A stretch of 64,000 nt of DNA from an uncultured bacterium (GTDB lineage: Bacteria; Omnitrophota; Omnitrophia; Omnitrophales; Abzuiibacteriaceae): the NCBI GenBank assembly GCA_964387845.1, contig CAYLXA010000009.1:42098-106097 (forward strand). Reading direction: 5' to 3'. The position numbers and the translations under genes were made by a program. Positions 8,645 to 63,677 of this stretch are shown piece after piece; the stretch's first letter is position 1; every line of letters begins with the position of its first letter. Under the pieces are notes generated by a model. It saw only the letters and a list, made by a program, of their open reading frames with translations, was not told the origin of the DNA and made no database searches.

Positions 8645-8651
8645 GTTTTTA

Positions 8652-8702: not shown

Positions 8703-8719
8703 AACTTACGACTGAAAAA

Positions 8720-44200: not shown

Positions 44201-47200
44201 CAACCCAACCTGCAGCGGCTCCTGTCAGAATTTTTAACGGCAGGTTCAATTCCGACCACGCGCTGCGTAGTTCGGAACGATGAGTAGTAACGGGGACGGT
44301 AGACCCCACAACGCCAAGAAGATCGAAACGTGCGCTGCTGTCCACGCGCTGGTCTGCTTTTGTGATTAAATCAAAAAGAGACTGCAAAGCTTGTTTCTGA
44401 TTTTCGTCGCGGACTTGCGCAAAAGCAAGCTGCAAAGCAGCTTCGGCATGGCTAAGCTGGCCTTTATTGAAAATCACGGCGGCCTGACGGACTAAAGATT
44501 CTAAATCGACAATTTCCGTAGGAAGCGGGGCAAATGGAAGCGATTCAAAAAATTTCCGGCTCTCACGGTCAGCAAAAGCTTGAGGCGTAATGCCTTCCGC
44601 TTTGGCGCTTTGCAAAATAACTCTCGTGCGGTGTTGGATTAAAGCCGCGATAGAACTATCGGAAGAATCATGCCCCAAATGGCCGTCAACTCCGGTGACG
44701 CCACCGGCATTGGAAATATAATCCGGAACCGGTGTAATGCCCGCTGCTTTCAGCTCTTCCGCATCTTTCACCTTATCATAAAGCACATTATTCGTAGACC
44801 CGACAACGCCCTTTACTCCGGCAAACATTAACTCTTTTGCAGCATCCGCATTAATCACAGGCCCTCGGGCTGCCGGCACAAAAATATCGACATGATCAAC
44901 GCCCAGCCGGTTAAAATCATCTTTGAAATGCTTTGCCGGATTAAAAATCTTGGTTGTATAACCGCCGCCGGTTTTCGGTTCTTCCAAAAAGTGAAAGAAA
45001 CGGTTTTGGTCAGCGTAAGTTTTAAGCGCCGGATGATCTTCGAAAAGTTTATCGATCCTTCCCTGGCTTACATCCGAAGCGATGACAACGCCGCCTTCAT
45101 CCAAAATGGGCTGAATGACTTCGCTGCCGACACCACCCACGCCTTGAACTGTGAAAACTTTTCCCGCGATTTCGGGATTATCGGGAAAAATTTCTGATAA
45201 TAAACCTTTTAATGAAGCAATGATCCCAACGCCGGTCGGATGAGTCGGGACTTTGCTGTTTCCGGTTTCATCCGAATAAGGCACGATTGAAGTCGGCGCA
45301 AATTTAAACAGCAGTTCGGCGTCCCGGACCGAAATATTCATGTCTTGTCCCGTTAAAACACCGCCGCCGATTAAATTTCCTATTTTCTCAACTGCTTTAG
45401 CGTAACTTTCAAGAATCGCATCGCGTTCGGGAGACTGAACCGCCGGATTAACCTTGTGGCTTCGGATAGCCGATTTGGAGCCGCCGATTTTTAAACCATT
45501 AATACCGGCACCTGCATTTTTAAAACTCATTTCCTGAGAAAGTTCAAGAGCATCAATCAACGCATCGACATCGCTTTGATAGCTCAAAATTCGCGTGCCG
45601 CCGGTAGCGCGCCACTGCCCGTTTAGGACACGGCCTTTGCTCTGAATTTGGGTAAGCCGGTGAATGGCAACATAAGCGGTATAACCCAAGATCGGGTTGT
45701 CAATTTGAAATACGGCGTAATGCCGGTCCCAATGCTCACGGATCTGATCGACTGCTTCCGGAAAAGCCGCCATGAAATCACTCAAATTGCGCAATGCGTG
45801 GATTTCGGTGCCATCCGGCATCACCATTCCGTCAAGGCGCTTTGGGTCCAACCGGTTGGCTTCGATATCGTATAAACGCAAATCGGCCACAACAGCTTTG
45901 GCCTGCCCCACAACCGATTCGCCCTGCGAATGATAAAGCCCGATTTCAATCCGCTCAAAAATGCCGATTAACTGTTCAAAGGATTCCGCGAGAGATAAAA
46001 GTGTTTGCGCAGTGGGCGTACCGACAATATTAAATTTTTTTCTGGTTGAAAAATCTCTTAATACGGCAGCGAAACTCTGAAACTGGAAATTTAAGATTTG
46101 GACAGTCTTAAGATTGATTAATCCTGCATCAAGTACAACTTGAATATCGGTTTTGATTTTATTAAAAATCGGAGCGCGCACAACATCGCCCGCTACATCT
46201 CTTTCACTTTGTGTTGCCGCCGTTTCTTCCAGTTTCTGCGAACTGCTCTGAATTAACTGGACGCTTTCCAAAATAAGCCCCAGAACTTCACGAACATCCT
46301 TCTGCCGCAGCTCGGACTTTGCCAAATGGCTTGGCAAAGCCGAAGCAGTCCCGCGCAGTTCAGCGCGGGGCAGCTCGGCCGTTGATTTCGCCTCGGAGCG
46401 GGAAAGTTCTTCGAGAATAGAATCGGGTTGATTTGGATCGAGTATTTCCTTTAATTTTGCCAAAGCGATACTTCTATCTGAAAAATCTTTAACAGCCTGT
46501 ATCAATTCTGACAGCGCCTTGCCTGTAGGACTCGTCGGCGCTTCAGCACGAGTCCGATGTTTGTCATAGCGTAGCGAATCTACTAAAAGAAACGCTTCGT
46601 GGGCTTTGCCGTGAAGCTGCTTCCACCGATGGTATGTATTGGGCATATTTCGTTGGAAGCCTGCTAAATCTGACTCCAGTTGCTCAAATATTGATTGGGC
46701 TTGAATAAGGCTGCTGTGAATAAATCTTATATCCTTTTCGGTTTGATGAAATTCCGGAGCGCTTGGGTTGATCATGACCAAGACAGGAGGAAATTTTTGT
46801 TTCACTTTCTGAACCATAGGAATAAGTTGAGTTAAAATTTCTTCAAGAGTCGCGCGCAGCTCGGAGCGCGAATTCTTGAAAGCGTTGTTTCGGACGCCGG
46901 ATTGATACTTGAAAGAGGTGTAAACATAAGTAATCGCAGCACCAATAAGCCCTGCGCCTACGCCGATCAGAATATACAGCGGCGTTGATTCAATGCCGTA
47001 TCCAATACCGAGGATCGGAACGCTTACCGCGCCGGCGATGCCACCTGTAAAAAGACCGATAACCACGGAGTGAAGCACGCGCTCCCCTCGTGACATGTCT
47101 TTCAAAATACTGAATGACCTCGCCCGCAGCTCGGACTTTGCCAAATGGCTTGGCAAAACCGAAGCAGCCCCGCGCAGTTCAGCGCGGGGCAGCTCGGCCC

Positions 47201-49364: not shown

Positions 49365-52300
49365 TTAGGCGCGCGATAGGACTATTTGGTATGAACGGAT
49401 GAATTGATCGATAGCTTCGACGGCTTTCCCAAGGCGGCCTCGGATACTGCTAATCATATCAGCCGTGAATAAAACAACGCTTGTGAAATAATCACTCAGT
49501 TCACTTCTCACGATTTCTGCCTCATGGCTTGAATCCGTAAAGTAAATGTTAGTCCGGATTCCCTTCGAACGCATGAGTTTGGCTAATTTTTCAGGCGTTG
49601 CGGCATATAAAATTTGTCTATCAATGGGAAGTGATGCATTGAGTTCATCGACAAAGCGAAGTTCGGAACGCGTGGGTGTTACAAATCCGATTCTCACATT
49701 CGACTGAGCTGCAATTTGAACATAATACGGCGCGAGCCCTTCATCGAACACAATGCTCCGCGCAAATACCCAGCCTTGGCTGGTACTATCGTGAATAAGT
49801 TTATCAGCAGCCATGGAGCGGTGAAGCTCGGAACGTAATCCGGGGTTTTGTTGAAGCTGGGTTCCAATGGCCTGATGCGCTTTTGTTAGAGATGAAAGCC
49901 TTGTATCAGTAATATTGAGGGCATCTTCTGCATTTAGCCTTTGGAAATCCGCGCTTGCTGTCCTTGAATTCCGAAGCTCGCTGCGGACTTTCCATGGATT
50001 GGACCTTTCCGGAGGATTTGTATACTTGTTACGTTCTGTTATTACTCGCTCAAGCCCTTCCTTTGCGCTATTGACAGCGGCCGACGCAGAAGCCCATTTG
50101 CTCGGATTAAGTAATTGCGTGCCATCCGGCTCTTCTGCAATTGGTGTTAAATGTTGAAGCTCGGCCCGCCGAAGATCGAGCTCTTTCTCTGCTAATGCGA
50201 CACGCGCATTTAAGATTGCTCCTTTTTGCTTGCTTGCTTCGGCTTCGGTCAATGCCGCCTGCGCTGCATTGAATGCTGCTTCAGCCGCGGCCACTTTGGG
50301 ATGAACTGTTTCAGTGCTTGCTCTTAATTCAGAACGCGATTCAAGAAATTGACGGTATGCTGCCAAGCTGGCAGATTCTGTGCGCGTATTGCCGTCTTTA
50401 ACAGTATCACCGGAAATATGCGCAAGCTGCTCACGCTCAAGCCAATCAAACACGATGCCGCCGGTTGAGATGTACCGATTCTTTACGCTTTCCGATTCTA
50501 ACGTTTCGCCGCCTTCGGTCCTGACGCGGACTTCATAGGAAGCAACAAAGGTCGGGTCGTTGGATGAAGCGCGAATCACGAAGCGCCCCGCCTCTTTCCC
50601 GGCTTCGTCTTTGAAGCGGATATCCGCAAACCGGTAAAGGCCGTCTTCGCCCTTGAAAGTTATGACTTCCCGGACTTTAAAAATACCGGCCGGCGATAAA
50701 AATTCTTTTTCTTTTGAGAATTCTTGAATTGCTTTTTCAACCGTCAGGTCACGGCCGAGCGCAATAATTTTCGGATTGGGTGTTGCTGTATCGCTATATT
50801 GATACCCCGTATCGTTGCGCGGATCTCCTGCCAATTTTTGCAAAAGCGACGCCTGAAACGGCGGTTGAAACCGCGTTGATTGTTTATAGGGTTTTGCATA
50901 ATGCTCGAATGCCGCTTCAAACGGAAATGGATTTTGTGTTTTGTGTTCTTGGGCGTATTGAGCAACTTGAATAACCGAAAGCACTGCCACTGCAATCGGA
51001 TTTTCGTATTCGCCGGTCACATCGAGCCACGCATGACCGGAGCGCTCGCTCAACATGGGGATACTGTAACCTTTCCCTTTTAATTCTTTGGCTTTTGCCT
51101 TCAAAAACGGGTAGCCGGAATCGGTTATAAATGTTTCAATTCCGTTTTCCCCGGCTGCATCTGCAACACCCAAAGTCGAAAGCACATCACTAATCACCGC
51201 CACATGCTCGGAGGAACGTGAATGATAACCGCCTCGATTAACCAAAAATGGGATGAGGATGGCCATTAAATTATCCGGCGGGAGCACAAGGAAACTGCCG
51301 TCCTTTCTCTTAATCACAATTGCTCCGCGATCGCCGTCCAAATCAAACGCGAGGCCGATATCAATATTTTCATCAGACATTTTGGTTCTTAATTCTTCAA
51401 GATTGGCCATAATAGACGGATCCGCTTTGTGCATTCCCGTAATCGACTGAACATCGCCGTTAATTAAAACGGCTTCGGCGCCCAAATTTTTGAATACAGC
51501 TTCCGCCAAATATCCGCTTGGTGTGTGGGCACCGTCAATCGCAATCCTAAGCCCTTCAAAGGGCTTTTGAAACATAACATACCCTGCGATCCGCTGCTCC
51601 CAATCTGATAATACTTTTTCCGGGAAATCACTCTTTCTCAATTGATCAGCCAAATTAAAAAGATTCGCCGCGCTACCTCCGATACCGGCAACTCGGCCAA
51701 CCAGCGTCGTTATGCGGACAGTATTAACATCTACGTTCAGCGCCCGGATATAACCTGACCTTTCGCCGGCATCGTGCACCATCCATCCGTAATCAGCCAT
51801 GTACTTTTGGACCATCGGAAGCGACACTGCTTTGATTTCTTGTGTCGTCAGACTCGCCAAGCGGCCTTCTTCGTCCTGTATGCTGACTTTTGCGCCGCGA
51901 ATTTCATCCGTGCTGGCCACATGGCTCGACGTCAGCAAAACACTGACGAGCGGCTGTATCTCGCGCACCGCCCAAGAATAAGAAGTTGCAGCATTCGGGC
52001 CGTCTTCTGCCGTATATACCACATCCAAACCTGCATATAAAAATCCTGCGGTCAAAGCTTCGACAAGTTCGGGTTCGATTTTGCGTGCATCGCGCGCAAT
52101 GACAACCGTTTCATTTTTAGAACCCGATTTCTTTGCCTTTTCAAACGCCATCCGTGCCCACGTAAGACCCCACAAAAACCAAAGCTTCGGCGACGGCGCA
52201 TGTTCTTTGTCTCGTGAACGGTAATCATAATCGCGCGCCATGAGTTTCACGAGCGTTTCATCTGCTTCGGTTGCCTTCATACGAATATATTTGGAGATCA

Positions 52301-55300
52301 GCTTCGTCGCATCCATCTCGGAAAGCCGTCTTAATTCGCTCCGTGCGGCAATTTCATTGCGCAAAGCTGAAAATGCACTGGATATTTTCTCGTTCAATTC
52401 CGAGACTTGCGCTGCGGTTCCGGCCGAAATCATTTCGGCCAGCTTTCCTTCCGCCTGAGAAGCGGCGGAACCTTGAAACTGCGACTGCAGCGACTGCCAT
52501 TTTTCCTGAATTTCCCTGGAACGTGCGTGGAGCTGCGTGGAAAGTTCTGAAAGCTCTTTCAAATTTTTTGATTCGATTTTTGTTTTCGCGGCAAGCTTGA
52601 CAATTTCCTGGAGTTTTTCCTCCCAATACCGGAAACCAAACAGCCATAATTTCCCGCTTTGAACTTTCAACGCCGCATCCAAATCACTCATTGCTTCGAT
52701 CGCCGCGCTAAACTCCGCATAAAACCGTTCGGCCGGATAAGGCGTAGCAGCAACTTCATGAAATGCGGCAGCGAACGGCTTTGCAACATTGTCCACCAAA
52801 GTTTTCAAGGCGGCTTCTTTTGCTTTTATGTCGGATTTGTCGCTATTGAGAGTTTTGCGTGCCGAAGGAAGCTCTGAAGACCTGACTGTATCGGTAACAA
52901 ATATCTGGACAGCGTCATTTTCAACCAAATCTCCCAAAACCTGCAGTTGCGGCATTGAGTGAGACTGGGCCGTATAAATACCCGTCAAAATATTTAACAA
53001 TTCTTTATCTTGGGCATCTTTCCAATCGACTGATAAGTTTGAAACAGAAATAGGCGTTTTGCCAATATGCCTAAATTTGCTGGTGATAAAAATTTTAATT
53101 TGGCTTTCGCTGATTTCAGGAGCTATTTTGTCAAATTCACCCGCACCAAAAGCTTGTTTAACAACAGCGGCCAAAACCTGCTTCAATGTATTCCGGCCAC
53201 CAACCTCCAATTTAAATTGCCGGACATTTCCGCGTATGTTGAGATTGATCACGAAATAAACCTTAGCACTTCCCTCGCCAAGCTTGGGTTGATTGGGCTG
53301 GATTACCGTTGTGCCGGCGGCAGGCTCTGAAGCATCCGGTTTAAAAGGTGATTCAAGCGTTACCGAATCTGCGCTTGGCGCTTTTACGGAAACTGAAATA
53401 ACGAACTTGGTCAAGCTGGCTTTAACAGGTTTGAGAGCCGGGCTGGCAGCAAATTCAACATCAGTCAAGACCGGTTTTGGCGCAGGTTTCTTGACTTCTT
53501 CTTTCTTATTTCCTTTAGCATCGTGATCGGCCTTGCGGGCTTCTTCAACTTCAACTTGCGGGACACTTCTTACCGCCTGAATGAATACAACACCGTGCAA
53601 AGACTGAAATTCTTCCAATGCCTCAATCATCGCCTCATCCCATTTCTCGGGGCGCACACCTTTCGCTAATTGATTCAGGAAATAAAGCCGGCCTTGATTG
53701 ACAGCATGAAGCTCTGAAATCGCATCCCAAATTTCGCCGATTTCTTTGACAACCTCCGGTGTAATCCTGATTTTACTGTCGGTCAACTTCTTTGCGATAT
53801 CATCCCTGAGCGCTTTTTCTTCGCGCAATTCCGAACGTCTTTCTTTTTTTGGCATCAAACTTAATTGGGGCAGCGAATCCCAAACCCAAACGGGAGCGTA
53901 AACATCTTCCTTCCACTCGTAAGTTCCTTGCAATCCCTCAATTGTATCCACCACATGGCTTTCTTCATGACCAGCACCAGGCTCCACGATTAGATCAAAA
54001 TCTTCGTGTGTTTCTAGAATTTTTACAGCCATGTCGATGAAATGCGGTTCATTGGCAAGATTTATATAGGTATCCCGAACTGCTTGCTGGGTGGCTGTTA
54101 TCAAATGCTGTTCTTTTAATTTCTGTTGAATCAGCTTGATTGTAATATTCCGCTTCAATTTATTGATCGCCCCTTTAACAACCGGCCTGTTGTCAAATAA
54201 AGTAACAAACTCGGGTCTCTGCTCTGTAATAGGACGTGATTCCATGTGACTGCCACCATACGGAGCCAAACCATGCTTTGCCTCGTAGCCATCTTGCTCA
54301 GGCCAAACTTCAACGTTTTCAAATTCGCCTGTTTCTACTGTTATCAAAGTTTCTACACGCCTGAAATCATCTTTTAGCTTCTCCAAATGCGGCAAAGCAC
54401 GGTCATCTTCAAGATGCCCCAAAGCAATAACCGCAAGCCGGCGAGTTTCTGGATCATGTGAAGACAGGTTTTGGATTAAAACGTCATAAATAGAATCAAT
54501 TTTTCTAATTACTATTTCAATCTCTTTTGAATTCCTACTATTCGCTAACCTATTAATCAATTGCAGTATGCTCCTCAATTGATCCAGCGAATACTGATTA
54601 ATCGCCTTCGGCAACCCCCACTTTAATAAGTTTGACACGTCTACTTTCTTATAAACCAATGTGTTGACTAACATATCGATCGCTTGCTTGATTGATTTTC
54701 GCTCCAAATCTTCAAACCTCCGAAGCGCGGTACGCACAGATGACCATGAGCCTATAGTTTGCCAAAAAGCGGTCCAAGTTAATTTACTCGCCCTTAATTC
54801 AGACCTCGCAAGAATTTCGAGAACCGCAGCACCGCTATCAAGATCAGCTGCTTGCAGAATTTGGTCGCCCGTAAATGGTGCTTTGCCTGCGTCTTTGGCA
54901 TAATGCACCAAATATTCGAAACCCGCTTGGCGCGCACCTTCGAATGCATCCGGGTCGTTATCAATCAAAACCGTGTTCCGGGCGTCTTCGCCTATCACAG
55001 ACCTGAATCGTTCCAGAACCTTATCGAAAAATTCGGGGGCTTTGCCTTTCTTCATGCCCAATTCGGATGAGAGGATCACCAGCCGGGGATCAAACAAATT
55101 TCCGTAGTGCTTCTTCAAAAACCGAAGTAAATGTTCTTTGCCTGCCAATTCGAAATTCACCACCACGCCGATATGGACGCCGTTATCTTTGATGGCCAAA
55201 AGTTTCTCGATCACTTGCTTGATGGCGGGATTTTCCGGACGCTCTCCGAAAAAAATGTCTTTAAATTCATCCTCGCTGAGCCCTTTAAATCCGTCCTTTT

Positions 55301-58300
55301 GCGATAAAAATTCACGAATTGACTCAAACCAGGGGTAAAAAGCGTCAGGATCCGTGTAAAGCGCTTCGCGAATAGGGTCATCTTTATGCGGAACGAGCAA
55401 ATTTTTTAACTTATTAAAGTCATCTCCGCTCAGATCTTCCTTCCGTAAGCCGGATTTGACAATCAATCCTTTGGCGACTAACTCGGCAAATGCGGGACTG
55501 CGTTCGTCCGCCAAAACACCGCCAAAATCGATAAACATGGCGTTTGAATCAAGTGCATTCCTGAGTTCAGAGCGGGCTTGGGCGGCTTTTCTAAATGCAG
55601 AACGTAAAACTTGAGCATGGTAGATATCATCGGTCAATCGAAGAAAAACACCTTCACCGCCCTGATCTTTTCGATTATTAACCAATGCTCCAAATGAAGC
55701 TTCGGCGAACATGTCCCGGACCATGTGAGGGCTCACGTTATGAAGATAGCCTTTCGCAAATCCGATAGCCGGAAGGCCTTTGGATTCTTTTCCTTGCTCG
55801 GGTACAAAGGAAACAAAAAATGGTAAAAATTTATCGGGGTTCGCCAAAACCTGCTGATAGCTGATATGCTGATCTCCCGTCCCCTGAATGACCCATTCGA
55901 TCCCGAAATCGACTAAATATTTTTTCAAATTAACAAACTTATCCCCGTCTAAATAAATAAATGGGACAAACTTCCGGCCGCTTTGGTCCGCATAATCCAT
56001 CGCCTTTTTAATAAGATTCGAAAGACGGTCGGTATTCTGCCAAGAAATTCCTTCTTCTAAAGAAATGCTTGCTCGAAACGCCTGTCCGCCAAATACCGGG
56101 TTTACACTGAGCTCTTTGGCCTTTTGCTGCGTCAGCGCGAATTCATGTTCAACTGCATCCGCCATCTGCAAATCTTGAAGCCAAGATTCCAAAAGTTTTT
56201 TGCCTAATTCCACATAAGGCTGCCGGGTATATAAATTTTCCTGTACAATTTTTGTTGCAGGATTATCCAAATCATTTAAATTAACATCGTTAACGGAAAA
56301 ACCTTTCTCCTTCAAAGCGCGGGCAATCAAGCGGTTTCCAACGACGGTTGTAGCAGTATAAAAAATGGAAAATAATTTTCCGATTTGATCGGCGATAAAT
56401 TGTTTATCAGCTTTTTTAATTTTGGATGATTGCCCAAGATTCAATTCATCGATATCAAAGACGTTAAAACCCACGGGAGGCATTTGAATATCGGCCAAAT
56501 TAATTACCAAGCGGTTTGGCTGCTTAAAAAAGCGTCTCCATTGCGGCTGTTTTTGCCAATCTCTTTCGCGGATGGCAACCAAATTTGCGAAACCTTTTTG
56601 CCAAATGCTTTCGTTGAAGTTTTGCTCCACTGATTTTGCAAACCAGAAAAGATGATTCGGAACTATCAGTGCCACATCAGAAATTTCATCGTTCAAAATC
56701 CGGTTTCCAATTTCTTCTCCGCTGTTTCCACCACGCTTAATGGCTGAATTTCTACCGATCCAATATTCCAAAGGATTTAATCGATGGTAAGCCAGAAATG
56801 TCATCATGTGCAGATCGCCCGTCCAGCGTCCGCCGACATTGTCGAACATGGCGCCGAATCCGGGCGCATCGTCGCCCAAAACTTTATCAAGGCCGGAATT
56901 TCGGATAAATGCGGAAAGCCGGCTTTCAGCCGGGCGATCGGTGGTTTCAAAAAACATATTGCCTAGGACGGTCGCGAAAATTTCTTTTACTTTTGCTTCA
57001 CCCATCACGCCATTCATCTTTTTAGCGATAATTTGAATAAGGCTTGATTTGCGAAATCTAACTTCATCAATCTTGAAGAGATCGCGAGCAGAACGTTCTT
57101 TGCCATCAACAAAATTAATGTCGTGAAGCGTGTTAAAAACCGTATCGGCAAACTTTTGGATGTCCGGGTGCGCTTTTGCATCACTCATGAAATCCGGTTC
57201 TAAATTTGTTTTTTCTTGGGCAACTTTTTTCAAAAGAACATAAAAAATTTCTGAGAAAATCATCATCGTTTCATCGGTAGATCCCGACTTTGAACTCGGT
57301 ATTACGGCAATCTGATCCCAGCTGATTTGTTTTTCATCCACAATATTTTCCAAGGCTTTCTCGTAATCTTTTCCAAGCTCATATTCACCAAGAATATCTC
57401 CGCTTGCGGGATCCACAACTTGAAACACGTCCGCGATACCTTGAAACGGCGTATGCTGGCCGCCGATTCCGGTTTTAATGATAAGTTTGATTGGTTTTCC
57501 AAGACGCTCTTCACGTTTGATGAAAAATTTTTTCAATCGGTTGACACCATCTACAAATTCTTGCTGGCCCGTGCGGCCGGTCTCGGGATTTACGTCTTCG
57601 CTATAATAACCTTGGGTTCCTTTTACAGCAAATGAGCCGTGAATGGCAGCGCCTTCCGGAACTCCATAACCATCTTGATCATAGCCACCCTTCAAAAATC
57701 GAGCGGCCATTTCCGCATTGCCCTTGGCATCGAGCGGCGTGGTCAACTTCTCCGCTAGAATTTTCGCTTCTGCCGTTTCAGCCGCAATTGCTTCCGTATC
57801 CATTTTTCTTAATTCAGAGCGGGAATCTGGCAGATGGGAATTATCTTTTGTCGAATGATTTCGCCTCAACCAGCTAACAATATCAGGCCACAAAAGAATA
57901 CCAAAAATGCCGCCGACGGAAAAAACAAGAAGCCCTGCGATTGCAAGCCAATTGGGCTCATGCAGTTCCGAACGGGATACAAAATAAACTTCATTGCCGG
58001 TTTGTGCTGAGCTAAAAACATTCCCAACCCGCTTTTCGTTTTCAAAAACAGGCGTTCCGTGCGCATCCGGAACCACTTCGAACTGCTTGCCGGCTGAGTT
58101 TTTGAAAACGACGATGTAATTTTTATAAATCGCCTTCCAGTCGCCAAAAACCGGTGTCCATTCGGACGTGATCCGGATTTTTCCGGTATCAATAGATTTC
58201 CGGCTCGTCGTTGGATGCCTAAAACTCGGGCTCATTTCCGGTGCAATAGCTTCCGGTGCTGGGCGTCTCGGGCGCCGCTTCTCGATTTCCTGCGGCGTCA

Positions 58301-61300
58301 AAAGGCGCGGCTGCGTGCCTTCCAGAGCCGTAACATCATGCTGATAAGGTTTATAGACAATATAAAAAGGGATGCTTCCTAACAGAACGACGCCGAGCGC
58401 AATTCTGAGAACGCTCATTTTCCGCGCGCGTGTCCAGAACGGCTTGCGCCCAGTTTCTGCTCTTAATTCCGAGCGGCTGAAAATGCCCGGCGTTACAAGC
58501 TCCGCTTCGCGGTTGTAGCGAAGCAGATCGGCCGCCAGGATTTTGTTGCCTTCGTAAGTTTCCAGCGTCACCCACAATTCATTGTCTGTTACGGGCCTTC
58601 CCAAAGCCTTTTCCATGGCCGCACGCGCTTCGTCAACCTCAGCTGGCGATTTCGTCCAATTTTTGGTAGATAGGAAGCGCATGCCTGCAAGATGAGGAAT
58701 TCTTTCTTCCCATGAAAGTTTTAAATACTCTTCGATCGGAAGATTCCGGACCCCTTTAACACCAACAGCCGCAATTTTCATATCAGGGCCTGCAACACCC
58801 GTTGACTGCCACATGTTGGTTTCGGCTTTCACCACAACCGCATTGCCTGACTTAGCCGGCTTGGCATCTAAAATGCGCGGGAACTTCCGGCGGCCGCGCT
58901 CGGCAATGGCTTCACGCTCGGCCGGTGTTGCCCCGCGCAGTTCTTCGATGAATTCCCTGTCCGCTTGACCATCCTGTTTATAAAGGCCTATCACATAGCG
59001 CGGCGTAAAAAATGCGACGGCATCGTTAAACCAATAAGAATCAGTGGGCTTTACAACATCACGGTTTGCAACCTGCTTTTTAACTTCTTCATCGGCGCTG
59101 GAAACAATGTCGTTGGTGATATTGATATTCGGGTCTTCGGCAAGCTGATGAGCGCCGTTGTCTTCCATAATGATTAAGCTGCCGCCTTTTTGTCCGGGCG
59201 CGCGCGGCGAAACTTCCGGCTGGAAATCGAGCTCGCGATCGAGGAAAAGCCCCAGGGTTCTCAGCCAAACTTTGTCAAATTTGGATGCGTAATTGTCCAC
59301 ATTCTTGACGAAGGCCCACTTTACACCGGCGTCAACCATACGCAAAAGCTCGCCGCTTACAATCATTTGATGAAAATACTCGCCGTGCCCCAAAGGATCC
59401 CGCTCGCCTTCAAAAACAACAGCGTTTGTGTCACCGCTCGCTAATTTTTCCTTTACTTCATTAGATCTTGCGAGCGCCGCTTGAAAAGTTTCATCAGATG
59501 TGAATTTGCTGCGCATTTTTTCCACTTTTTCCGGTTTTTCAACAAACTTGGCGCCGAGCGGCTGATGGAAAAATCCGACTTGTTCGTTGTGCAGGCCGTA
59601 ATGACGATTTTTTCCGAGCATTTCGTCGTGTTCCGGCCGGTATTCATCATTCGAAAGAAATCCGATTAGATTTTCCCACACCTTTGTGACCGGCATTCCG
59701 GCATTCCTTACCTCTTCAGCAACCGCACGGAAAAGCCGGGAAAGATTTTCGCCGAACTCACCGAAATAGGTTGTCACCTTTCCATCGCTTGTGCGCCCGA
59801 TAGGCACAGCCGCTTTTGATAAAATTTCGCCGTCTACGTCCATAGCCAGCACTTCTTCGGGCGCTTCTTTGGTGTTCATGCGTGAGCTTGCGCCCGCAAC
59901 CAGCATCGAAATATAGCCTTCGCCTCTATCCAGTGACTTGACGGCGATAGCTTCAAGCCGCAGGGCTTCCTGCGGGTCAATTTCTGTAATATCAAACACA
60001 TCTTCTTTGCGGCTCGCGCGGAACGGACGCGAAATCGGTGTAGTTGCCAATTCCCCCCGCCAATAAGCCAATCCGGTCTCAACTTCGCTTCTTAACTCCG
60101 AGCGTGAAGCTTCAAAACGGCTCAAATCAAGCGAGCCGGTGGCGAGAGCCGCCGCCGCTCCTCCCGCATCTTTGGATTTCTTGAATGTGCCCTCAACGAT
60201 GAAAGAAAGCGCCCCGAGATTTCCGGTATTTTGAACCGTCAGCTTGGGATGGCCATTCGTCAGTCTAATGTCACGAATATCGCTCAGCGTTACTTCCAGC
60301 TTACTATCTATTCGATCCGGCTTGAGCAGAGTGTCCTGAGTCGCGGTAGAACGCAAAGCATTCCGCACCGCACTTTTAATGGCTTGAGACAAACTCTTTT
60401 TTGTAAACTCCCGCTTTCGGCCTTCATCAGCTAAGGTCAATTCCGTGATTTTAACTGCAGATTCGTCCTCTGCTTTTTCTGATTGCCTGAGCTCTGCACG
60501 AGATTTAGCAGCAATTACTTTTACATTAATGAGAACGTTACGCGGCAGTGTGTTGATGGAAACGGTTGTCCGTGCCGGTTGGTCGCTTTCGGGTGGAAAG
60601 GTTGTTTTCCATATGGAGTTATACTCCGGAAAATCTCTTGCCATATCCGAAAGAGATACTCGCACCGCTAAGATGTTTTCCCACGAGGACCCCTCTTTTT
60701 CTAGCTGGGTCCGGATATTTTGAATGGCCGCTTGAACCTGCGCCCCGATTCCTTCCGCTCTGATCTCGCCATTGTCATTCTCAGGACCTACGGCCTCTAA
60801 AACAACAAGCTCGGCGGGTAATGACTCCGGCACTTTGGCAATTGCATTAACTTCAAATGCGATCGGCGTCGGCAGCGCAACGACTTCGATAATCGTGTGC
60901 TTGGGTTCATGGCCGACTTGTTTGAAATGCTCTGCCCAAACACGTTCAAATATCGCGCGCTCATCATCGTTATAATCTGTGAGAAACACTTCCATTTCCG
61001 TAATTGCCTTCCATGTAACACCCGCTGCTTCCAGAATAAATTCAACATTGGCAAAGGTTGAACGCATTTGGGTTGCAATATCACGTGAAAGAACTTTGCC
61101 TTTGTCATCTTGATGAACGCCTGGAATTCGGTCTGAACCAAGCTTGCGAGGGCCAACACCTGAAAGAAAAAGATGATCTTGAAACCGTCTGGCATGAGGG
61201 TATGCCCCAACTGCTTTCGGGGCGCGATCGCTATTGATTGCTTCGCCAATCCGCGGTTCAGCGCGACGAGGTTTTTCTCGATCTCTTATTCGCAATCTTT

Positions 61301-63677
61301 CATTCAAATCTTCATGGATTGACTTGTATCTTCTTTCCAATTTTCTCACTTCACTACCTGCCATATCCACTGCATGGGCTTGATGAGGATCGCGAAAAGG
61401 TCCATCACTTGCTTGCACCGTCATCAACCAATTCGCTCTTGCATTATTAAGTTGTCGTTCAACTTGAAACAGTTCTGCTTGAAGCTCAGCTATGCGATCG
61501 CTGCGCAGCTCGGCTCTGGCTTTGGTTGAAGGAGAAAACGAGAGAATGGGAGAATAATATATATTATTTAAACTTAATAAATAATTGATAAATAATAAAT
61601 ATTGTGGTAAGCTAGCGGCCGTAATGAAATCGAATGGCTTATTAACCGAATCGAAGCGTGACTTTATCCAGCGGTTTATGCTTAACCTGCTTTGCATTAT
61701 TGCTGCATCCGCCCTGGCTAGCAATTTCTTTACAGCAATGCCATTGGGTGTTAGGATTTGTCTTGGCAGTGGCGCTTTAGTTGCTCTTGTGATCGGATTT
61801 TTTATCAAATAAGGAGGAAATAACAATGTTTGGAGCACTGCTTGTACTATCCATGACTTTGATATGCGCTGCCATAATGATCGTTGATTACTATCAACGA
61901 AAGCACCGCCGTCATCACTCCTGATTTTTCCCGTTTCAGCGTTTTCCCGAAGTTCGGAACGGTCAATAGGCACAACTTTTGCCAGGTAATTTCTAGGAGG
62001 AATACGGAATGTGAGCGAATCTTCTATCGTTGGATGTTCAAAAACAAATTGATAATCTTGCCTCATGTTTTTGATTAACCATGCTTCTCTTACAAGCTCT
62101 CTTAGATTTGTGTGGCCCCAATCCAGAAAATGATACACGCCGGGGTCCTGCTTATGGGCATCAGTATATAACTTTATAACTGCTTCAATGGTAAATTGAA
62201 TCCATTCTTCCAGTTCTTGTGGATCTTTCAAACTCGCCGTCAAAGGACGTACAACCTGCCGTAAACTACGTCGTGGGATTCGAATGCCTGCCATATTAAT
62301 CTCGTTCTTCATGCGCCAGACGATAGGTTCAACGTCACGGTTTAGCATCACAAAATAAGTAACAAAACTTCCCACTGCACCGATACCCAATAGGCCTATG
62401 TGCCAGTTTTTCAGTAGAGAATCTGCTACTTCTGAGATTTGACGCAACTCGGAGCGGGATTCTCCAGCGCTAGGCGATTCCGCCAAAATGCGCGGCGGAT
62501 CCGTCTTTCTTTGTGGCGGAAAGTGATAGGCGTTAGGTTGTTTTGATTCACTTAACGTTTGACGCTTATCACTTAACGCTAGATTCGGAAGCCCGAGAAG
62601 CTCCCGAAATTCGGAGCGTTGAGCAGCTTTTACGAGTTCATAGCTACCGGCAAAAACAAAGCCAAGCGCGATAAACACAGAGGCTTTTGAAGTCGAGCTC
62701 ACATCCGGAATGAAGCTGTTCAGTATTTTGTTTACCAGATAGAGCAACATTGCAAATGGTATTGCAAGAACCATCGTCTCAAGGTCACTTCTTCTAAAAG
62801 CGCCGCCAGCGCTCCTAATTTTCCTCGTTTTAGTGCCTTCCCGAAGCCCAGACCTATCCTCAGACAAAATAGTTTGACTACCAGCTTCTTGCCCTGCCGG
62901 AACAACCAACACCTTTTGATATACCGTCGAAACGCTCCAGCCGCCTGTGCTCTCTTCCTGCAGTTCCAGTTTGTAACCTTGGTTCTTAAGCGCCCAGGCT
63001 TGCTCTAAAATCTCGCTGAGATAATGCTCTAACCCGTAAAAATTTCTAGAAAAGAAAGGCCCTCTTTTCTCTGCATGTAAAAGTACGTCGAGCTCAACTA
63101 GAAATTCGGTTACAAATTCATCAAACGCAAATTCGTTTGCTGACGGTTCGCTCTGCATTTTATTTTTGATAAACTCGGCCCCTTTTTGAACAACGAATCT
63201 GGGCAGGCGGCGGGATCTTCCATAATCATACAAACTTTTGTCTAGCCTATTTTCAATATTTCTGAGACGGCTAGCTTTACTCTTCGCCATCGCCAAGGCA
63301 ACGAGCACTGTAAATGCGCCTGACGCAAAAGCAGCCATCAGCATGAAGACCGAAACATCCGAAACGCGTAACTCGGAGCGGGATTTATCAATTGCGGAGT
63401 GCGAAGTGTCAAATGCGGATTGATCGCTTCCATTCCGCATTCCCTGCCTAGCCGGCAGGCGGGCGAAATCCGCATTCCGCACTGGAAGCCCGAGAAGCTC
63501 GCGGAGTTCAGAACGGCCTACAATGGAGGCGGCTAATTTCTTGGGAGTAACGGTGTTTAAACTTTTAAATGCGGAAATAACGGACGGTGCATCCGAGTAA
63601 GCAACGGAATTGGTAAAAGAAAAAGCAAGGACGAGCGTTAATGCGAGAGATTTTGTGAGAAATCGATTGAATTTCAC
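49365..63677 (-). CDS. Giant mosaic polyprotein E, 4770 aa, built from hexose-phosphate and UDP-sugar metabolism modules.
   Basis: ORF-track ORF. GTG start at 63675..63677 with AAAGAGG about 10 nt upstream. TAA at 49365..49367. Leader (M)KFNRFLTKSLALTLVLAFSFTNSVAYSD. Confidence 0.85.
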   Translation of the reverse strand: MKFNRFLTKSLALTLVLAFSFTNSVAYSDAPSVISAFKSLNTVTPKKLAASIVGRSELRELLGLPVRNADFARLPARQGMRNGSDQSAFDTSHSAIDKSRSELRVSDVSVFMLMAAFASGAFTVLVALAMAKSKASRLRNIENRLDKSLYDYGRSRRLPRFVVQKGAEFIKNKMQSEPSANEFAFDEFVTEFLVELDVLLHAEKRGPFFSRNFYGLEHYLSEILEQAWALKNQGYKLELQEESTGGWSVSTVYQKVLVVPAGQEAGSQTILSEDRSGLREGTKTRKIRSAGGAFRRSDLETMVLAIPFAMLLYLVNKILNSFIPDVSSTSKASVFIALGFVFAGSYELVKAAQRSEFRELLGLPNLALSDKRQTLSESKQPNAYHFPPQRKTDPPRILAESPSAGESRSELRQISEVADSLLKNWHIGLLGIGAVGSFVTYFVMLNRDVEPIVWRMKNEINMAGIRIPRRSLRQVVRPLTASLKDPQELEEWIQFTIEAVIKLYTDAHKQDPGVYHFLDWGHTNLRELVREAWLIKNMRQDYQFVFEHPTIEDSLTFRIPPRNYLAKVVPIDRSELRENAETGKIRSDDGGAFVDSNQRSLWQRISKSWIVQAVLQTLLFPPYLIKNPITRATKAPLPRQILTPNGIAVKKLLARADAAIMQSRLSINRWIKSRFDSVNKPFDFITAASLPQYLLFINYLLSLNNIYYSPILSFSPSTKARAELRSDRIAELQAELFQVERQLNNARANWLMTVQASDGPFRDPHQAHAVDMAGSEVRKLERRYKSIHEDLNERLRIRDREKPRRAEPRIGEAINSDRAPKAVGAYPHARRFQDHLFLSGVGPRKLGSDRIPGVHQDDKGKVLSRDIATQMRSTFANVEFILEAAGVTWKAITEMEVFLTDYNDDERAIFERVWAEHFKQVGHEPKHTIIEVVALPTPIAFEVNAIAKVPESLPAELVVLEAVGPENDNGEIRAEGIGAQVQAAIQNIRTQLEKEGSSWENILAVRVSLSDMARDFPEYNSIWKTTFPPESDQPARTTVSINTLPRNVLINVKVIAAKSRAELRQSEKAEDESAVKITELTLADEGRKREFTKKSLSQAIKSAVRNALRSTATQDTLLKPDRIDSKLEVTLSDIRDIRLTNGHPKLTVQNTGNLGALSFIVEGTFKKSKDAGGAAAALATGSLDLSRFEASRSELRSEVETGLAYWRGELATTPISRPFRASRKEDVFDITEIDPQEALRLEAIAVKSLDRGEGYISMLVAGASSRMNTKEAPEEVLAMDVDGEILSKAAVPIGRTSDGKVTTYFGEFGENLSRLFRAVAEEVRNAGMPVTKVWENLIGFLSNDEYRPEHDEMLGKNRHYGLHNEQVGFFHQPLGAKFVEKPEKVEKMRSKFTSDETFQAALARSNEVKEKLASGDTNAVVFEGERDPLGHGEYFHQMIVSGELLRMVDAGVKWAFVKNVDNYASKFDKVWLRTLGLFLDRELDFQPEVSPRAPGQKGGSLIIMEDNGAHQLAEDPNINITNDIVSSADEEVKKQVANRDVVKPTDSYWFNDAVAFFTPRYVIGLYKQDGQADREFIEELRGATPAEREAIAERGRRKFPRILDAKPAKSGNAVVVKAETNMWQSTGVAGPDMKIAAVGVKGVRNLPIEEYLKLSWEERIPHLAGMRFLSTKNWTKSPAEVDEARAAMEKALGRPVTDNELWVTLETYEGNKILAADLLRYNREAELVTPGIFSRSELRAETGRKPFWTRARKMSVLRIALGVVLLGSIPFYIVYKPYQHDVTALEGTQPRLLTPQEIEKRRPRRPAPEAIAPEMSPSFRHPTTSRKSIDTGKIRITSEWTPVFGDWKAIYKNYIVVFKNSAGKQFEVVPDAHGTPVFENEKRVGNVFSSAQTGNEVYFVSRSELHEPNWLAIAGLLVFSVGGIFGILLWPDIVSWLRRNHSTKDNSHLPDSRSELRKMDTEAIAAETAEAKILAEKLTTPLDAKGNAEMAARFLKGGYDQDGYGVPEGAAIHGSFAVKGTQGYYSEDVNPETGRTGQQEFVDGVNRLKKFFIKREERLGKPIKLIIKTGIGGQHTPFQGIADVFQVVDPASGDILGEYELGKDYEKALENIVDEKQISWDQIAVIPSSKSGSTDETMMIFSEIFYVLLKKVAQEKTNLEPDFMSDAKAHPDIQKFADTVFNTLHDINFVDGKERSARDLFKIDEVRFRKSSLIQIIAKKMNGVMGEAKVKEIFATVLGNMFFETTDRPAESRLSAFIRNSGLDKVLGDDAPGFGAMFDNVGGRWTGDLHMMTFLAYHRLNPLEYWIGRNSAIKRGGNSGEEIGNRILNDEISDVALIVPNHLFWFAKSVEQNFNESIWQKGFANLVAIRERDWQKQPQWRRFFKQPNRLVINLADIQMPPVGFNVFDIDELNLGQSSKIKKADKQFIADQIGKLFSIFYTATTVVGNRLIARALKEKGFSVNDVNLNDLDNPATKIVQENLYTRQPYVELGKKLLESWLQDLQMADAVEHEFALTQQKAKELSVNPVFGGQAFRASISLEEGISWQNTDRLSNLIKKAMDYADQSGRKFVPFIYLDGDKFVNLKKYLVDFGIEWVIQGTGDQHISYQQVLANPDKFLPFFVSFVPEQGKESKGLPAIGFAKGYLHNVSPHMVRDMFAEASFGALVNNRKDQGGEGVFLRLTDDIYHAQVLRSAFRKAAQARSELRNALDSNAMFIDFGGVLADERSPAFAELVAKGLIVKSGLRKEDLSGDDFNKLKNLLVPHKDDPIREALYTDPDAFYPWFESIREFLSQKDGFKGLSEDEFKDIFFGERPENPAIKQVIEKLLAIKDNGVHIGVVVNFELAGKEHLLRFLKKHYGNLFDPRLVILSSELGMKKGKAPEFFDKVLERFRSVIGEDARNTVLIDNDPDAFEGARQAGFEYLVHYAKDAGKAPFTGDQILQAADLDSGAAVLEILARSELRASKLTWTAFWQTIGSWSSVRTALRRFEDLERKSIKQAIDMLVNTLVYKKVDVSNLLKWGLPKAINQYSLDQLRSILQLINRLANSRNSKEIEIVIRKIDSIYDVLIQNLSSHDPETRRLAVIALGHLEDDRALPHLEKLKDDFRRVETLITVETGEFENVEVWPEQDGYEAKHGLAPYGGSHMESRPITEQRPEFVTLFDNRPVVKGAINKLKRNITIKLIQQKLKEQHLITATQQAVRDTYINLANEPHFIDMAVKILETHEDFDLIVEPGAGHEESHVVDTIEGLQGTYEWKEDVYAPVWVWDSLPQLSLMPKKERRSELREEKALRDDIAKKLTDSKIRITPEVVKEIGEIWDAISELHAVNQGRLYFLNQLAKGVRPEKWDEAMIEALEEFQSLHGVVFIQAVRSVPQVEVEEARKADHDAKGNKKEEVKKPAPKPVLTDVEFAASPALKPVKASLTKFVISVSVKAPSADSVTLESPFKPDASEPAAGTTVIQPNQPKLGEGSAKVYFVINLNIRGNVRQFKLEVGGRNTLKQVLAAVVKQAFGAGEFDKIAPEISESQIKIFITSKFRHIGKTPISVSNLSVDWKDAQDKELLNILTGIYTAQSHSMPQLQVLGDLVENDAVQIFVTDTVRSSELPSARKTLNSDKSDIKAKEAALKTLVDNVAKPFAAAFHEVAATPYPAERFYAEFSAAIEAMSDLDAALKVQSGKLWLFGFRYWEEKLQEIVKLAAKTKIESKNLKELSELSTQLHARSREIQEKWQSLQSQFQGSAASQAEGKLAEMISAGTAAQVSELNEKISSAFSALRNEIAARSELRRLSEMDATKLISKYIRMKATEADETLVKLMARDYDYRSRDKEHAPSPKLWFLWGLTWARMAFEKAKKSGSKNETVVIARDARKIEPELVEALTAGFLYAGLDVVYTAEDGPNAATSYSWAVREIQPLVSVLLTSSHVASTDEIRGAKVSIQDEEGRLASLTTQEIKAVSLPMVQKYMADYGWMVHDAGERSGYIRALNVDVNTVRITTLVGRVAGIGGSAANLFNLADQLRKSDFPEKVLSDWEQRIAGYVMFQKPFEGLRIAIDGAHTPSGYLAEAVFKNLGAEAVLINGDVQSITGMHKADPSIMANLEELRTKMSDENIDIGLAFDLDGDRGAIVIKRKDGSFLVLPPDNLMAILIPFLVNRGGYHSRSSEHVAVISDVLSTLGVADAAGENGIETFITDSGYPFLKAKAKELKGKGYSIPMLSERSGHAWLDVTGEYENPIAVAVLSVIQVAQYAQEHKTQNPFPFEAAFEHYAKPYKQSTRFQPPFQASLLQKLAGDPRNDTGYQYSDTATPNPKIIALGRDLTVEKAIQEFSKEKEFLSPAGIFKVREVITFKGEDGLYRFADIRFKDEAGKEAGRFVIRASSNDPTFVASYEVRVRTEGGETLESESVKNRYISTGGIVFDWLEREQLAHISGDTVKDGNTRTESASLAAYRQFLESRSELRASTETVHPKVAAAEAAFNAAQAALTEAEASKQKGAILNARVALAEKELDLRRAELQHLTPIAEEPDGTQLLNPSKWASASAAVNSAKEGLERVITERNKYTNPPERSNPWKVRSELRNSRTASADFQRLNAEDALNITDTRLSSLTKAHQAIGTQLQQNPGLRSELHRSMAADKLIHDSTSQGWVFARSIVFDEGLAPYYVQIAAQSNVRIGFVTPTRSELRFVDELNASLPIDRQILYAATPEKLAKLMRSKGIRTNIYFTDSSHEAEIVRSELSDYFTSVVLFTADMISSIRGRLGKAVEAIDQFIRSYQIVLSRA
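49368..50430 (-). other. C-terminal coiled-coil plus conserved C-terminal region of E, with at least five RSELR-type sites.
   Basis: ...KVRSELRNSRTASADF...GLRSELHRS...SIVFDEGLAPYYVQIAAQSNVRIGFVTPTRSELRFVDELNASLPIDRQILYAATPEKLAKLMRSKGIRTNIYFTDSSHEAEIVRSELSDYF...QIVLSRA*. Confidence 0.4.
50430..52120 (-). other. Module in E: alpha-D-phosphohexomutase (phosphoglucomutase/phosphomannomutase).
   Basis: ETVVIARDARKIEPELVEALTAGFLYAGLDVVYTAEDGPNA (~52085..52110), LLTSSHVAST (the phosphoserine-loop position), IAIDGAHTPSGY, GLAFDLDGDRGAIV (~51325..51350), PMLSERSGHAWL. Confidence 0.85.
54380..54480 (-). other. HEAT/PBS-lyase-like repeat in E.
   Basis: SHDPETRRLAVIALGHLEDDRALPHLEKLKDD. Confidence 0.35.
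54870..55560 (-). other. Module in E: HAD-superfamily phosphatase/hydrolase.
   Basis: MFIDFGGVLADERS (the DxG/D motif I-like FDxxGVL, ~55510..55550), HIGVVVNFELAGKEH, VLIDNDPDAFEGARQAGFEYL. Confidence 0.55.
55900..57750 (-). other. Module in E: glucose-6-phosphate isomerase family (SIS domains), divergent.
   Basis: KLIIKTGIGGQHTPFQGIADVFQ (~57420..57480), AVIPSSKSGSTDETMMIF (~57270..57310, the SKSGTT-ET signature), FDNVGGRWTGDLHMMTF (~56820..56860, GGR[YF]S-like). Confidence 0.7.
58700..59990 (-). other. Module in E: UDPGP-family nucleotide-sugar pyrophosphorylase-like (UTP-glucose-1-phosphate uridylyltransferase type).
   Basis: ISMLVAGASSRMNT (~59880..59930, compare L-N-G-G-L-G-T-x-M-G) and YFHQMIVSGELLRMVDAGVKWAFVKNVDNYASKFD (~59285..59330, compare NIDNLGA). 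Confidence 0.5.
60470..61240 (-). other. Modules in E: two tandem RidA/YjgF (endoribonuclease L-PSP) family domains.
   Basis: Copy 1: RAPKAVGAYPHARRFQDHLFLSGVGPRKLGSDRIPG...EMEVFLTD...HTIIEVVALPTPIAFEVNAIAKV (~60840..61240). Copy 2: ELVVLEAVGPENDNGEIRAEGIGAQVQAAIQNIRTQLEKEGSSWENILAVRVSLSD...TTVSINTLPRNVLINVKVIAA (~60470..60830). Confidence 0.75.
61561..61625. other. A 65-nt island of more than 85% AT inside the E coding frame that stays open in frame.
   Basis: gaataatatatattatttaaacttaataaataattgataaataataaatattgtggtaagc encodes SLPQYLLFINYLLSLNNIYYS. Contains -10-like TATAAT/TAATAT strings on both strands. Confidence 0.5.
61900..63150 (-). other. Internally duplicated module of unknown function in E (two copies, each ending ...TGKIRS-x-GGAF), plus TM helices.
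   Basis: Copy a: EFVTEFLVELDVLLHAEKRGPFFSRNFYGLEHYLSEILEQAWALKNQGYKLEL...TKTRKIRSAGGAFRRSD. Copy b: LEEWIQFTIEAVIKLYTDAHKQDPGVYHFLDWGHTNLRELVREAWLIKNMRQDYQFVFE...ETGKIRSDDGGAFVDSN. A third degenerate echo sits near 58300. Confidence 0.45.
63366..63380 (-). other. Example RSELR site in E (codons CGC TCC GAG TTA CGC).
   Basis: Plus strand gcgtaactcggagcg. Reads KSRSELRVSDVSV. Confidence 0.9.
63570..63677 (-). other. Leader of E: conserved Sec-like leader.
   Basis: (M)KFNRFLTKSLALTLVLAFSFTNSVAYSDAPSVISAF. First RSELR at about residue 56 (GRSELRELLGLP). Confidence 0.6.

Follow-up and report, generated by a model that had tools for sequence, protein, structure and literature searches.

We analyze a 64,000-nucleotide stretch of DNA from an uncultured bacterium of the phylum Omnitrophota (contig CAYLXA010000009.1 of assembly GCA_964387845.1; hereafter, "the window"), which is nearly filled by five giant open reading frames, A to E, all on the minus strand. 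To judge from their sequences, the five encoded proteins belong to a family whose members follow a single plan: an N-terminal leader, a series of interchangeable cargo modules that are mostly intact cytoplasmic-type enzymes, and a conserved C-terminal domain (CTD). The modules are delimited by a pentapeptide, R-[SA]-E-L-R (hereafter RSELR), and the chains are nearly free of cysteine, so that four signatures are linked in the same proteins. The leader has the features of a family-specific signal peptide that matches no known signal-peptide family in Pfam or NCBIfam, and it becomes interpretable through the RSELR sites that punctuate the chains, the near-lack of cysteine, and the CTD. We think it probable, if narrowly so, that the leader serves this family as a dedicated pre-pro signal for export, that some dedicated factor reads R-[SA]-E-L-R, and that the purge of cysteine stems from exposure outside the cytoplasm.

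Giant proteins of the Omnitrophota have been catalogued before. Many unrelated enzyme Pfams occur in each chain, 94% of the proteins have a signal peptide or transmembrane (TM) helices, and cleavage into smaller products has been suggested (Nielsen & Lui 2026, bioRxiv 10.64898/2026.06.07.730766; West-Roberts et al. 2023, bioRxiv 10.1101/2023.11.21.568195). In the available text of these catalogues, the cleavage points are given as unknown, and no common leader, linker motif, cysteine bias, or CTD is reported (10.64898/2026.06.07.730766; 10.1101/2023.11.21.568195). The proteins of the window resemble the multi-enzyme giants of Nielsen & Lui (2026) in their Omnitrophota origin, the tiling of enzyme Pfams, and the presence of a leader and TM helices. 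However, they are only 2595-5718 aa long, whereas that catalogue has a cut-off of at least 10,000 aa. The four-part code of leader, RSELR, CTD, and cysteine purge appears to be undescribed in Pfam, NCBIfam, and the literature examined.

An initial annotation of the window proposed that the five giants share a homologous N-terminal leader, and we recover the five peptides at the minus-strand coordinates given there. In a MAFFT alignment, residues F19, F21, and Y27 are invariant in all five, and a common RSELR lies ~27 residues past the predicted cleavage site. The start points assigned to A, B, D, and E hold, but that of C does not: position 39689 is an upstream in-frame GTG, and the ATG is at 39674, where the database protein P0001 also begins. 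The leader module consists of a signal peptide of ~28 residues with the core consensus F-[ST]-F-[ST]-[NS]-[ST]-[IV]-[AG]-Y-[ST]|[DE] (the bar marks the predicted cut), a variable spacer of ~27 residues, and a conserved RSELRxLLGLP box, which bears out the earlier remark that the similarity extends past the predicted signal-peptidase site. In E (63480..63677), the signal peptide comprises aa 1-28 (63594-63677) with a predicted cut at AYS|D, the box reads RSELRELLGLP (aa 55-65), and the leader hidden Markov model (HMM) scores 92 bits. The signal peptide of A (8465..8644) has 28 aa (…FTFSSSMAYS|D) and is followed by ASELR at aa 55-59 and RSELR at aa 69-73. That of C (39480..39674) has 27 aa (…FSFTSSIAYS|D), with RSELRKELDLP at aa 54-64, and that of D (48879..49076) has ~27 aa (…FTFTSTVGYT|D), with RSELR at aa 57-61 after the spacer. 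In B (25667..25876), a signal peptide of ~32 aa (…FSFTNTIAYS|E) precedes a degenerate first box, SAEVRDLLGLA.

The same anatomy is seen across 38 family members drawn from the window, database representatives, and related loci. Median values are 28 residues for the predicted signal peptide and 29 for the stretch from there to the first R-x-E-L-R, which in most members is 24-34 residues long. This first motif is usually lengthened to RSELRxLLGLP and, where it has decayed, an LLGLP-like remnant stands at an equal distance. By rule-based features, the architecture is Sec-like, as had been suggested: the net charge of the n-region is +1 to +4 in all five leaders of the window, the apolar core spans 11-13 residues (mean Kyte-Doolittle value of the best 11-residue window, 1.3-2.6), and, in the five leaders and in most of the 38 members, residues -3 (A or G) and -1 (S or T) obey the -3/-1 rule ahead of a D or E, with no Pro from -3 to +1. 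The c-region is under unusually tight constraint. On these features and on hydrophobicity, the leaders look like substrates of Sec and signal peptidase I. Other signal classes find no support in the five leaders: none contains a cysteine that could form a lipobox for signal peptidase II, no n-region has the RR of a twin-arginine (Tat) signal and there is no TAT_signal match at E<=10, and the type IV pilin-like (class III) motif G|F-T-L-x-E does not occur. For the first 80 residues of the five leaders, we obtained only unrelated marginal Pfam matches at E<=10, and no NCBIfam match, when looking for the ESPR, YSIRK, and KxYKxGKxW signals.

The leader is also highly specific. Against a six-frame translation of the window, its HMM matches the five N-termini only (next best, E=0.25), and an exhaustive HMMER search of 1.84 billion representative proteins returned 31 at E<=1e-3, a similarity far above that between unrelated signal peptides, as the initial annotation had held. 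All 31 matches start at residue 1-19 of the target and reach ~residue 70, in proteins that range from contig-truncated fragments up to 5710 aa. The leader profile run against a word-indexed database of 5.8 billion proteins gave 76 candidates, none of which scored. A related signal had been attributed to X, a protein of 522-524 aa encoded between D and C (39676..41250, minus strand), but the leader HMM has no match to the X reading frame, and X has an ordinary signal peptide of its own.

The five genes are paralogous, lie in tandem on a single strand, and, in the case of B and D, have a short element in common in their 5' untranslated regions (UTRs). The shared leader could be a non-functional by-product of a 5' cassette that was recently duplicated or underwent gene conversion, and a duplicated cassette was one of two explanations offered at first. 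The DNA is at odds with this. Over the leaders plus 60 nt upstream, mean column identity is 57%; in the 19-codon leader core, identity at codon positions 1, 2, and 3 is 0.57, 0.83, and 0.41; and identical residues use the same codon in just 47% of pairs. The codon-position pattern and the low codon sharing therefore indicate old divergence under selection at the peptide level rather than a recently copied cassette. Moreover, relatives with an X of just 63% identity retain this peptide, as do 31 clusters worldwide. We regard a by-product as effectively refuted and give it almost no weight. The other explanation, a dedicated targeting signal, fits what the sequences of relatives suggest, as the leader is retained in four homologous loci (L002, L004, L007, and L008). 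The initial annotation had named absence from such loci as grounds for refutation, and this check does not refute it.

The second signature is the pentapeptide. The five giants contain 51 copies of exact RSELR versus 0.036 expected from composition, and with K/Q/A-SELR included there are 58 sites (collectively xSELR). Since all five positions use mixed codons, the constraint lies at the peptide level; we considered a DNA- or RNA-level signal, which the mixed codons rule out. Over 181 family sites, the motif reads R(92%)-S/A(93%)-E-L(94%)-R, and the ten residues on either side carry essentially no information. None of the 58 xSELR sites falls inside a Pfam domain (30% Pfam coverage; P about 8e-10). 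Many lie 10-20 residues ahead of a domain start, such as B 160 (Rossmann fold at 172), B 2779 (2790), C 2985 (2998), and A 1449 (1469), and about a dozen have a TM helix 10-25 residues downstream. The sequences thus indicate that the motif marks module boundaries. Our search of the literature for "RSELR" found just the R package varSelRF and an active-site motif of PL7 alginate lyases, the latter unrelated.

Third, cysteine is almost absent. The five giants have 2 cysteines in 20,472 residues, both in giant C at aa 3497-3506, "VCPLCHKHH" (29150-29190, minus strand). This segment is the first CxxC of an AccD-type zinc ribbon in the carboxyltransferase module, the second cysteine pair of which seems to have been swapped for histidine. 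The two alternative reading frames of the giants contain many TGY triplets. Across 31 family representatives, we count 21 cysteines in 51,606 residues (0.04%), versus 0.2-1.2% in neighboring non-family proteins and 0.25-0.54% in distant Omnitrophota giants with hydrophobic leaders; a roughly tenfold depletion is specific to the family that has the leader and RSELR. As far as motifs can tell, the purge leaves the catalytic machinery intact: the TIM module retains NWK, GHSERR, and AYEPVWAIGTG while its conserved Cys126 is replaced by Ala; the P-loop of GTP-PEPCK reads YPSAVGKTN, against what we take to be a canonical FPSACGKTN; and the serine of the acyl carrier protein (ACP) and the B12 motif DxHxxG are present.

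The fourth signature is at the other end of the chain. All complete family members terminate in a conserved CTD of ~190 residues, which starts at RSELR in 19/20 aligned members and ends in a tail of the form x4-9-[SA]-A, often directly past a final RSELR. In the window, the CTD of B (8723..9340, 206 aa) starts at RSELR and ends …RSELRNVIELGRAA; those of C (26151..26789, 213 aa), D (41292..41918, 209 aa), and E (49368..49985, 206 aa) end …MTRAA, …RSELRTLRSA, and …IVLSRA, respectively, all on the minus strand. The CTD has an alternating beta-alpha pattern, and an AlphaFold2 (AF2) model from 4 sequences was of low confidence (pLDDT 49.5), too poor for a fold search. The CTDs have no match in Pfam or NCBIfam at E<=10, including the beta-sandwich tail of type IX secretion (Por_Secre_tail), and none of the 8000 word-sharing candidates from the 5.8-billion-protein database scored against the CTD profile.

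Between these constant ends lies the cargo. The initial annotation described chains of cytoplasmic enzymes with an ACP and a TetR helix-turn-helix; Pfam supports the enzymes and an ACP-like module, but a TetR helix-turn-helix is not detected at E<=1. Pfam matches in giant A (2..8644; at least 2881 aa, with its C-terminus outside the window; 0 Cys, 11 xSELR sites, 2 TM helices) comprise a metallophosphoesterase-like module, an ACP-like module in which the DSL serine is present, GTP-PEPCK, and TIM. Giant B (8720..25876; 5718 aa; 0 Cys, 8 RSELR sites) contains three 3-hydroxyacyl-CoA dehydrogenase modules, methylmalonyl-CoA mutase (MCM), acyl-CoA synthetase, HpcH aldolase, MaoC hydratase, and acyl-CoA dehydrogenase (ACAD). 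Giant C (26148..39674; 4508 aa; 2 Cys, 9 xSELR sites, 3 TM helices) has an AprA-like methyltransferase, two copies of MeaB, MCM with a B12 domain, a methyltransferase (MT), biotin carboxylase (BC) with carboxyltransferase (CT), and a P-loop module with a weak match to AAA_18. Giant D (41289..49076; 2595 aa; 0 Cys, 16 xSELR sites, ~8 TM helices) has a Glu/Leu/Phe/Val dehydrogenase module. Giant E (49365..63677; 4770 aa, GTG start; 0 Cys, 4-5 TM-like helices), of which an identical protein is recorded on a public Logan contig, combines two RidA modules, UDPGP (UDP-glucose pyrophosphorylase), HEAT, and PGM (phosphoglucomutase). Its 14 xSELR sites are at 63501-63515, 63366-63380, 62442-62456, 61947-61961, 60090-60104, 58461-58475, 57807-57821, 55560-55574, 54792-54806, 53823-53837, 52329-52343, 50322-50336, 49971-49985, and 49656-49670. 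All of these features are on the minus strand.

Among the homologues of X that carry a name, the closest are annotated as "hypothetical proteins" of Candidatus Omnitrophota, none of the 86 matches has a functional name, and all homologues with an organism name are from Omnitrophota except one metagenome-assembled genome (MAG) labelled Deltaproteobacteria. X occurs at 63% identity in the Crystal Geyser MAG "Candidatus Abzuiibacterium crystallinum" and at 86% identity on a 525-kb metagenome contig. In loci L002, L004, L007, and L008 (X 63-86% identical), the X-flanking giants whose start lies in the locus all have the leader, those whose end lies in the locus have the CTD, and all show RSELR and near-zero cysteine. 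As far as seen, the leader family is confined to an Omnitrophota lineage related to "Candidatus Abzuiibacterium crystallinum".

In syntenic giants, the two ends alone are conserved. D and its L008 counterpart are just 26% identical overall; as their interiors are not orthologous, cargo has been exchanged. A close relative splits the enzyme modules otherwise over its genes (MT+BC+CT, MeaB-MCM-B12, ECH-SDR-TIM, and ACS-ADH-ECH-PEPCK), and the MeaB-MCM-B12 module is RSELR-bounded both in C of the window, where it stands behind TM helices, and in the family protein P0013, where it stands directly behind the leader. Because the ends are conserved while the cargo is exchanged, the evolutionary unit is the RSELR-delimited module between constant ends. 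Conserved ends around freely exchangeable cargo would also suit a two-part sorting code, in which leader and CTD direct the chains to a special compartment or particle such as an internal membrane-bounded space, vesicles, or a surface coat. Cytoplasmic-type cargo needs a cofactor-containing space, and the organism belongs to the PVC group, some other bacteria of which have an internal membrane-bounded space. However, no recognizable shell or dedicated translocase is encoded in the window or the related loci, and the portions of the literature at hand mention no such compartment for Omnitrophota. We consider this explanation improbable.

Farther away, in the Omnitrophota locus L009 (X 34% identical), PFK and PPDK-PGK proteins have hydrophobic N-termini, no RSELR, and 0.25-0.27% Cys. 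Because leaders occur there without RSELR or the cysteine purge, the full code is specific to one lineage within a phylum-wide habit of placing leaders on metabolic enzymes. The two L009 proteins, a phosphofructokinase of 1177 aa and a PPDK-PGK fusion of 1880 aa with leaders …VSFIFTSIPSGAFAG…, are encoded at 11559-20768 and adjoin an X homologue and PilZ genes. Two further observations concern the closer relatives. In L002, a single in-frame stop at 4788-4796 parts a leader-bearing reading frame (868 aa) from a downstream CTD-bearing one (1675 aa), for which an assembly error, a pseudogene, and a truly split gene are possible explanations. In L008, from a relative at 85% identity, a gene of 118 aa (8578-8934) with Pfam matches to 23S_rRNA_IVP and bAvd lies between X and the next giant; proteins of this type are accessory proteins of diversity-generating retroelements.

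Where the cargo would end up depends on the TM helices behind the leader. Our TM predictor was simple and crude, with inconsistent counts, and we do not commit to full topologies. It finds no TM-like segment after the leader in the 5718 residues of B, two in A, three in C, about eight in D, and four or five in E. The complete P0013 (1918 aa, leader to CTD) likewise has no TM helix after its leader. In many members, a TM helix lies 5-20 residues past the second RSELR, at a distance of ~80-130 residues from the N-terminus. If the leader is functional, B and the first 2700 residues of A (with ACP, PEPCK, and TIM) would be outside the cytoplasm. Through their internal TM helices, A, C, D, and E could have some of the chain brought back into the cytoplasm. 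The paradox pointed out in the initial annotation, that of a signal peptide on cytoplasmic enzymes, thus stands for B but is softened for the other four. Giant D also contains an internal duplication, "ELPRAELRG(A/T)AS(V/A)LPSHLAKSELR" at aa ~628-652 and ~901-925 (about 47120-47195 and 46300-46375, minus strand), and a glycine-rich TM hairpin (…VIGLFTGGIAGAVSVPILG…) that follows the copy at 648 and the RSELR site at 197 but not the copy at 921; together, these indicate repeated membrane-hairpin modules.

On the reading that we favor, the leader would engage the Sec translocon with its N-terminus in the cytoplasm and the chain behind it outside, and would be cut after AYS. The chain, or those parts not brought back by later TM helices, would then be exposed outside the cytoplasm, and this exposure would account for selection against cysteine. 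R-[SA]-E-L-R would be recognized by a dedicated factor, in the simplest case an endopeptidase; its first cut would remove a pro-peptide of ~27 residues, and later cuts would release or mark modules in the manner of a polyprotein. We infer export, both kinds of cut, and the identity of the protease from the sequence patterns above. Candidate enzymes are secreted X and the trypsin-like modules embedded in the giants of relatives.

X falls in the erythromycin-esterase (EreA)/TIKI/TraB/ChaN superfamily, a hydrolase superfamily with some site-specific peptidases. Residues H74, E102, R121, and H467 are invariant, and an AF2 model from a 51-sequence alignment has a pLDDT of 89.6. The stop codon of X and the ATG of giant C are one base apart (TAA G ATG, 39672-39678), a spacing that suggests translational coupling, and in L001/L004 and L007 there is a 4-nt overlap between the X homologue and the leader-bearing giant that comes next. 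In L007, two giants (15460-20991 and 20991-21992) start with an ordinary-looking signal peptide and have an X-like (EreA/TIKI/TraB-type) domain directly behind it; one of them also has fumarase domains and ends …RELGRSA. X is a candidate maturation hydrolase. The trypsin-like candidate is a Trypsin_2 module with RSELR on its flanks and an intact His/Asp/Ser triad, at aa 1809-2030 of an L008 giant (8906-18463), which also has the leader as well as AceK kinase/phosphatase and MaoC modules.

Several observations weigh against export and cleavage. The cargo requires ATP, GTP, NAD, CoA, B12, or biotin, or is itself an ACP, none of which is expected outside the cytoplasm. The motif is missing at some enzyme junctions (e.g., PEPCK-TIM and HpcH-MaoC-ACAD), and in some members RSELR-like motifs occupy three or four internal positions of the CTD, apparently in helices, which is odd for a pure cleavage site. 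No protease domain is found by Pfam in the giants of the window, where we also looked for a trypsin-like module and found none. Since X also occurs in Omnitrophota loci without neighboring giants (L005 and L010), its link to the giants is suggestive only. Finally, the charges flanking the TM helices of C fit an arrangement with the leader out, TM1 in, TM2 out, and TM3 in, and suggest that its MeaB, MCM, and carboxylase are returned to the cytoplasm; the TM3/TM4 flanks of E suggest the same for PGM. Because these modules of C and E would end up in the cytoplasm, exposure does not explain their loss of cysteine.

Those predicted positions inside the cell would fit a membrane tether, in which the leader, by itself or paired with the first TM helix in a hairpin, anchors chains whose enzymes stay in the cytoplasm and channel their substrates, with RSELR as a linker or docking motif. 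Intact, cofactor-dependent cargo would be at home there, and the early TM helix of many members would leave only a short external loop. However, B and P0013 have no TM helix after the leader, and the basic n-region and acidic +1 residue predict an N-in/C-out orientation that would export the whole chain. On the Hessa scale, scores of the best leader 19-mers are +1.7 to +5.1 kcal/mol versus +2.3 for the signal peptide of X and -1.8 to +0.9 for internal TM helices. The leader therefore does not exceed an ordinary cleavable signal peptide in hydrophobicity, falls short of the internal helices and, because its hydrophobicity is like that of X's signal peptide, it looks like a cleavable Sec signal with a short pro-region rather than a stable anchor. 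A family-specific, roughly tenfold depletion of cysteine, moreover, has no reason in the cytoplasm. We hold a tether to be possible but doubtful.

The proposed export signal can be set beside several known systems. The ESPR (PF13018; autotransporters and TpsA), YSIRK (PF04650), and KxYKxGKxW (serine-rich glycoproteins) signals are Sec signals with a conserved extra motif, each confined to a single class of exported proteins of very large size, and these motifs are thought to tune or route export. Unlike in those signals, the conserved part here is the h/c-region plus the first ~40 mature residues, with no N-terminal extension, and the cargo consists of cytoplasmic-type enzymes rather than adhesins or repeats. 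Type V and type I secretion substrates are large, cysteine-poor proteins that cross the envelope unfolded. The giants share with them a strong paucity of cysteine in large proteins, but have no beta-barrel translocator, RTX repeats, or TPS domain by Pfam, and their CTD is predicted to be alpha/beta and ends in Ala. Few autotransporter passengers hold even one cysteine pair (PMC9769942).

Viral polyproteins with an embedded chymotrypsin-fold protease offer a second parallel, in the short, context-free border motif and in the motif-flanked trypsin-fold module of a relative's giant. Here, however, the host is cellular, the products would be metabolic enzymes, the cleavage is a prediction, and the motif also occurs within the CTD and is missing at some junctions. 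The PEXEL (RxLxE/Q/D) motif of Plasmodium and the RxLR motif of oomycete effectors are cleaved and license delivery to the host cell. They have in common with the present leader a signal peptide, a spacer (about 20-35 residues there, ~27 here), and a short arginine-containing motif. Still, the motif sequence is different, it is repeated along the chain, and the organism is a bacterium, so that the likeness is an analogy only, without evidence of host delivery.

Among the remaining features of the window, tRNA and Rfam scans gave no matches. Sigma-70-like promoters lie ~175-205 nt upstream of B, D, and E (26050-26078, 49252-49280, and 63833-63861, minus strand), with boxes TTGACT/TTGAAA, N17, and TACCTT/TACTCT/TAATAT; the B and E versions have TTGACT-N5-TAAAGC-N3-ATGTTAC in common. 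Because such a promoter precedes each of them, B, D, and E each seem to have their own promoter and a long 5' UTR. The element common to the 5' UTRs of B (25896-25914) and D (49117-49135) reads AAAACTTT(A/G)(A/G)AAAAGTC(A/T)G on the minus strand, 20-40 nt before the start codon. A gap of 75 nt separates the end of B from the start of A. Within it, a perfect hairpin, AAGTGGTAAG…CTTACCACTT (8671-8700), is followed by CTTA(C/T)CACTTA repeats and could be a terminator, an attenuator, or a processing site.

Omnitrophota are inferred to be host-dependent episymbionts or predators, and the functions of their giant genes are described as poorly understood. Against this background, one can imagine a stronger version of the export reading, which we put forward tentatively and judge to be rather unlikely: a host-dependent, ultra-small bacterium exports intact, cysteine-free chains of central-metabolism enzymes to the periplasm, the surface, or a host by a three-part code of leader, R-[SA]-E-L-R as a site of processing or sorting, and CTD as a sorting domain. 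If so, TIM, PEPCK, PGM, the methylmalonyl-CoA pathway, and beta-oxidation would run partly outside the cytoplasmic membrane, and the code would amount to a bacterial counterpart of PEXEL/RxLR-type host targeting, coupled to the maturation of a polyprotein.

Should export prove not to occur, this family remains a clear case of membrane-tethered, freely reshuffled multi-enzyme chains, with the near-complete avoidance of cysteine left unexplained. More generally, the locus provides a concrete and testable sequence code that defines one family and predicts both cut points and a non-cytoplasmic environment for the cargo. If export is real, cofactor-dependent core enzymes that are now counted as ordinary cytoplasmic functions would work outside the cytoplasm or in a host, and the genome-based metabolic reconstruction of these episymbionts would change.

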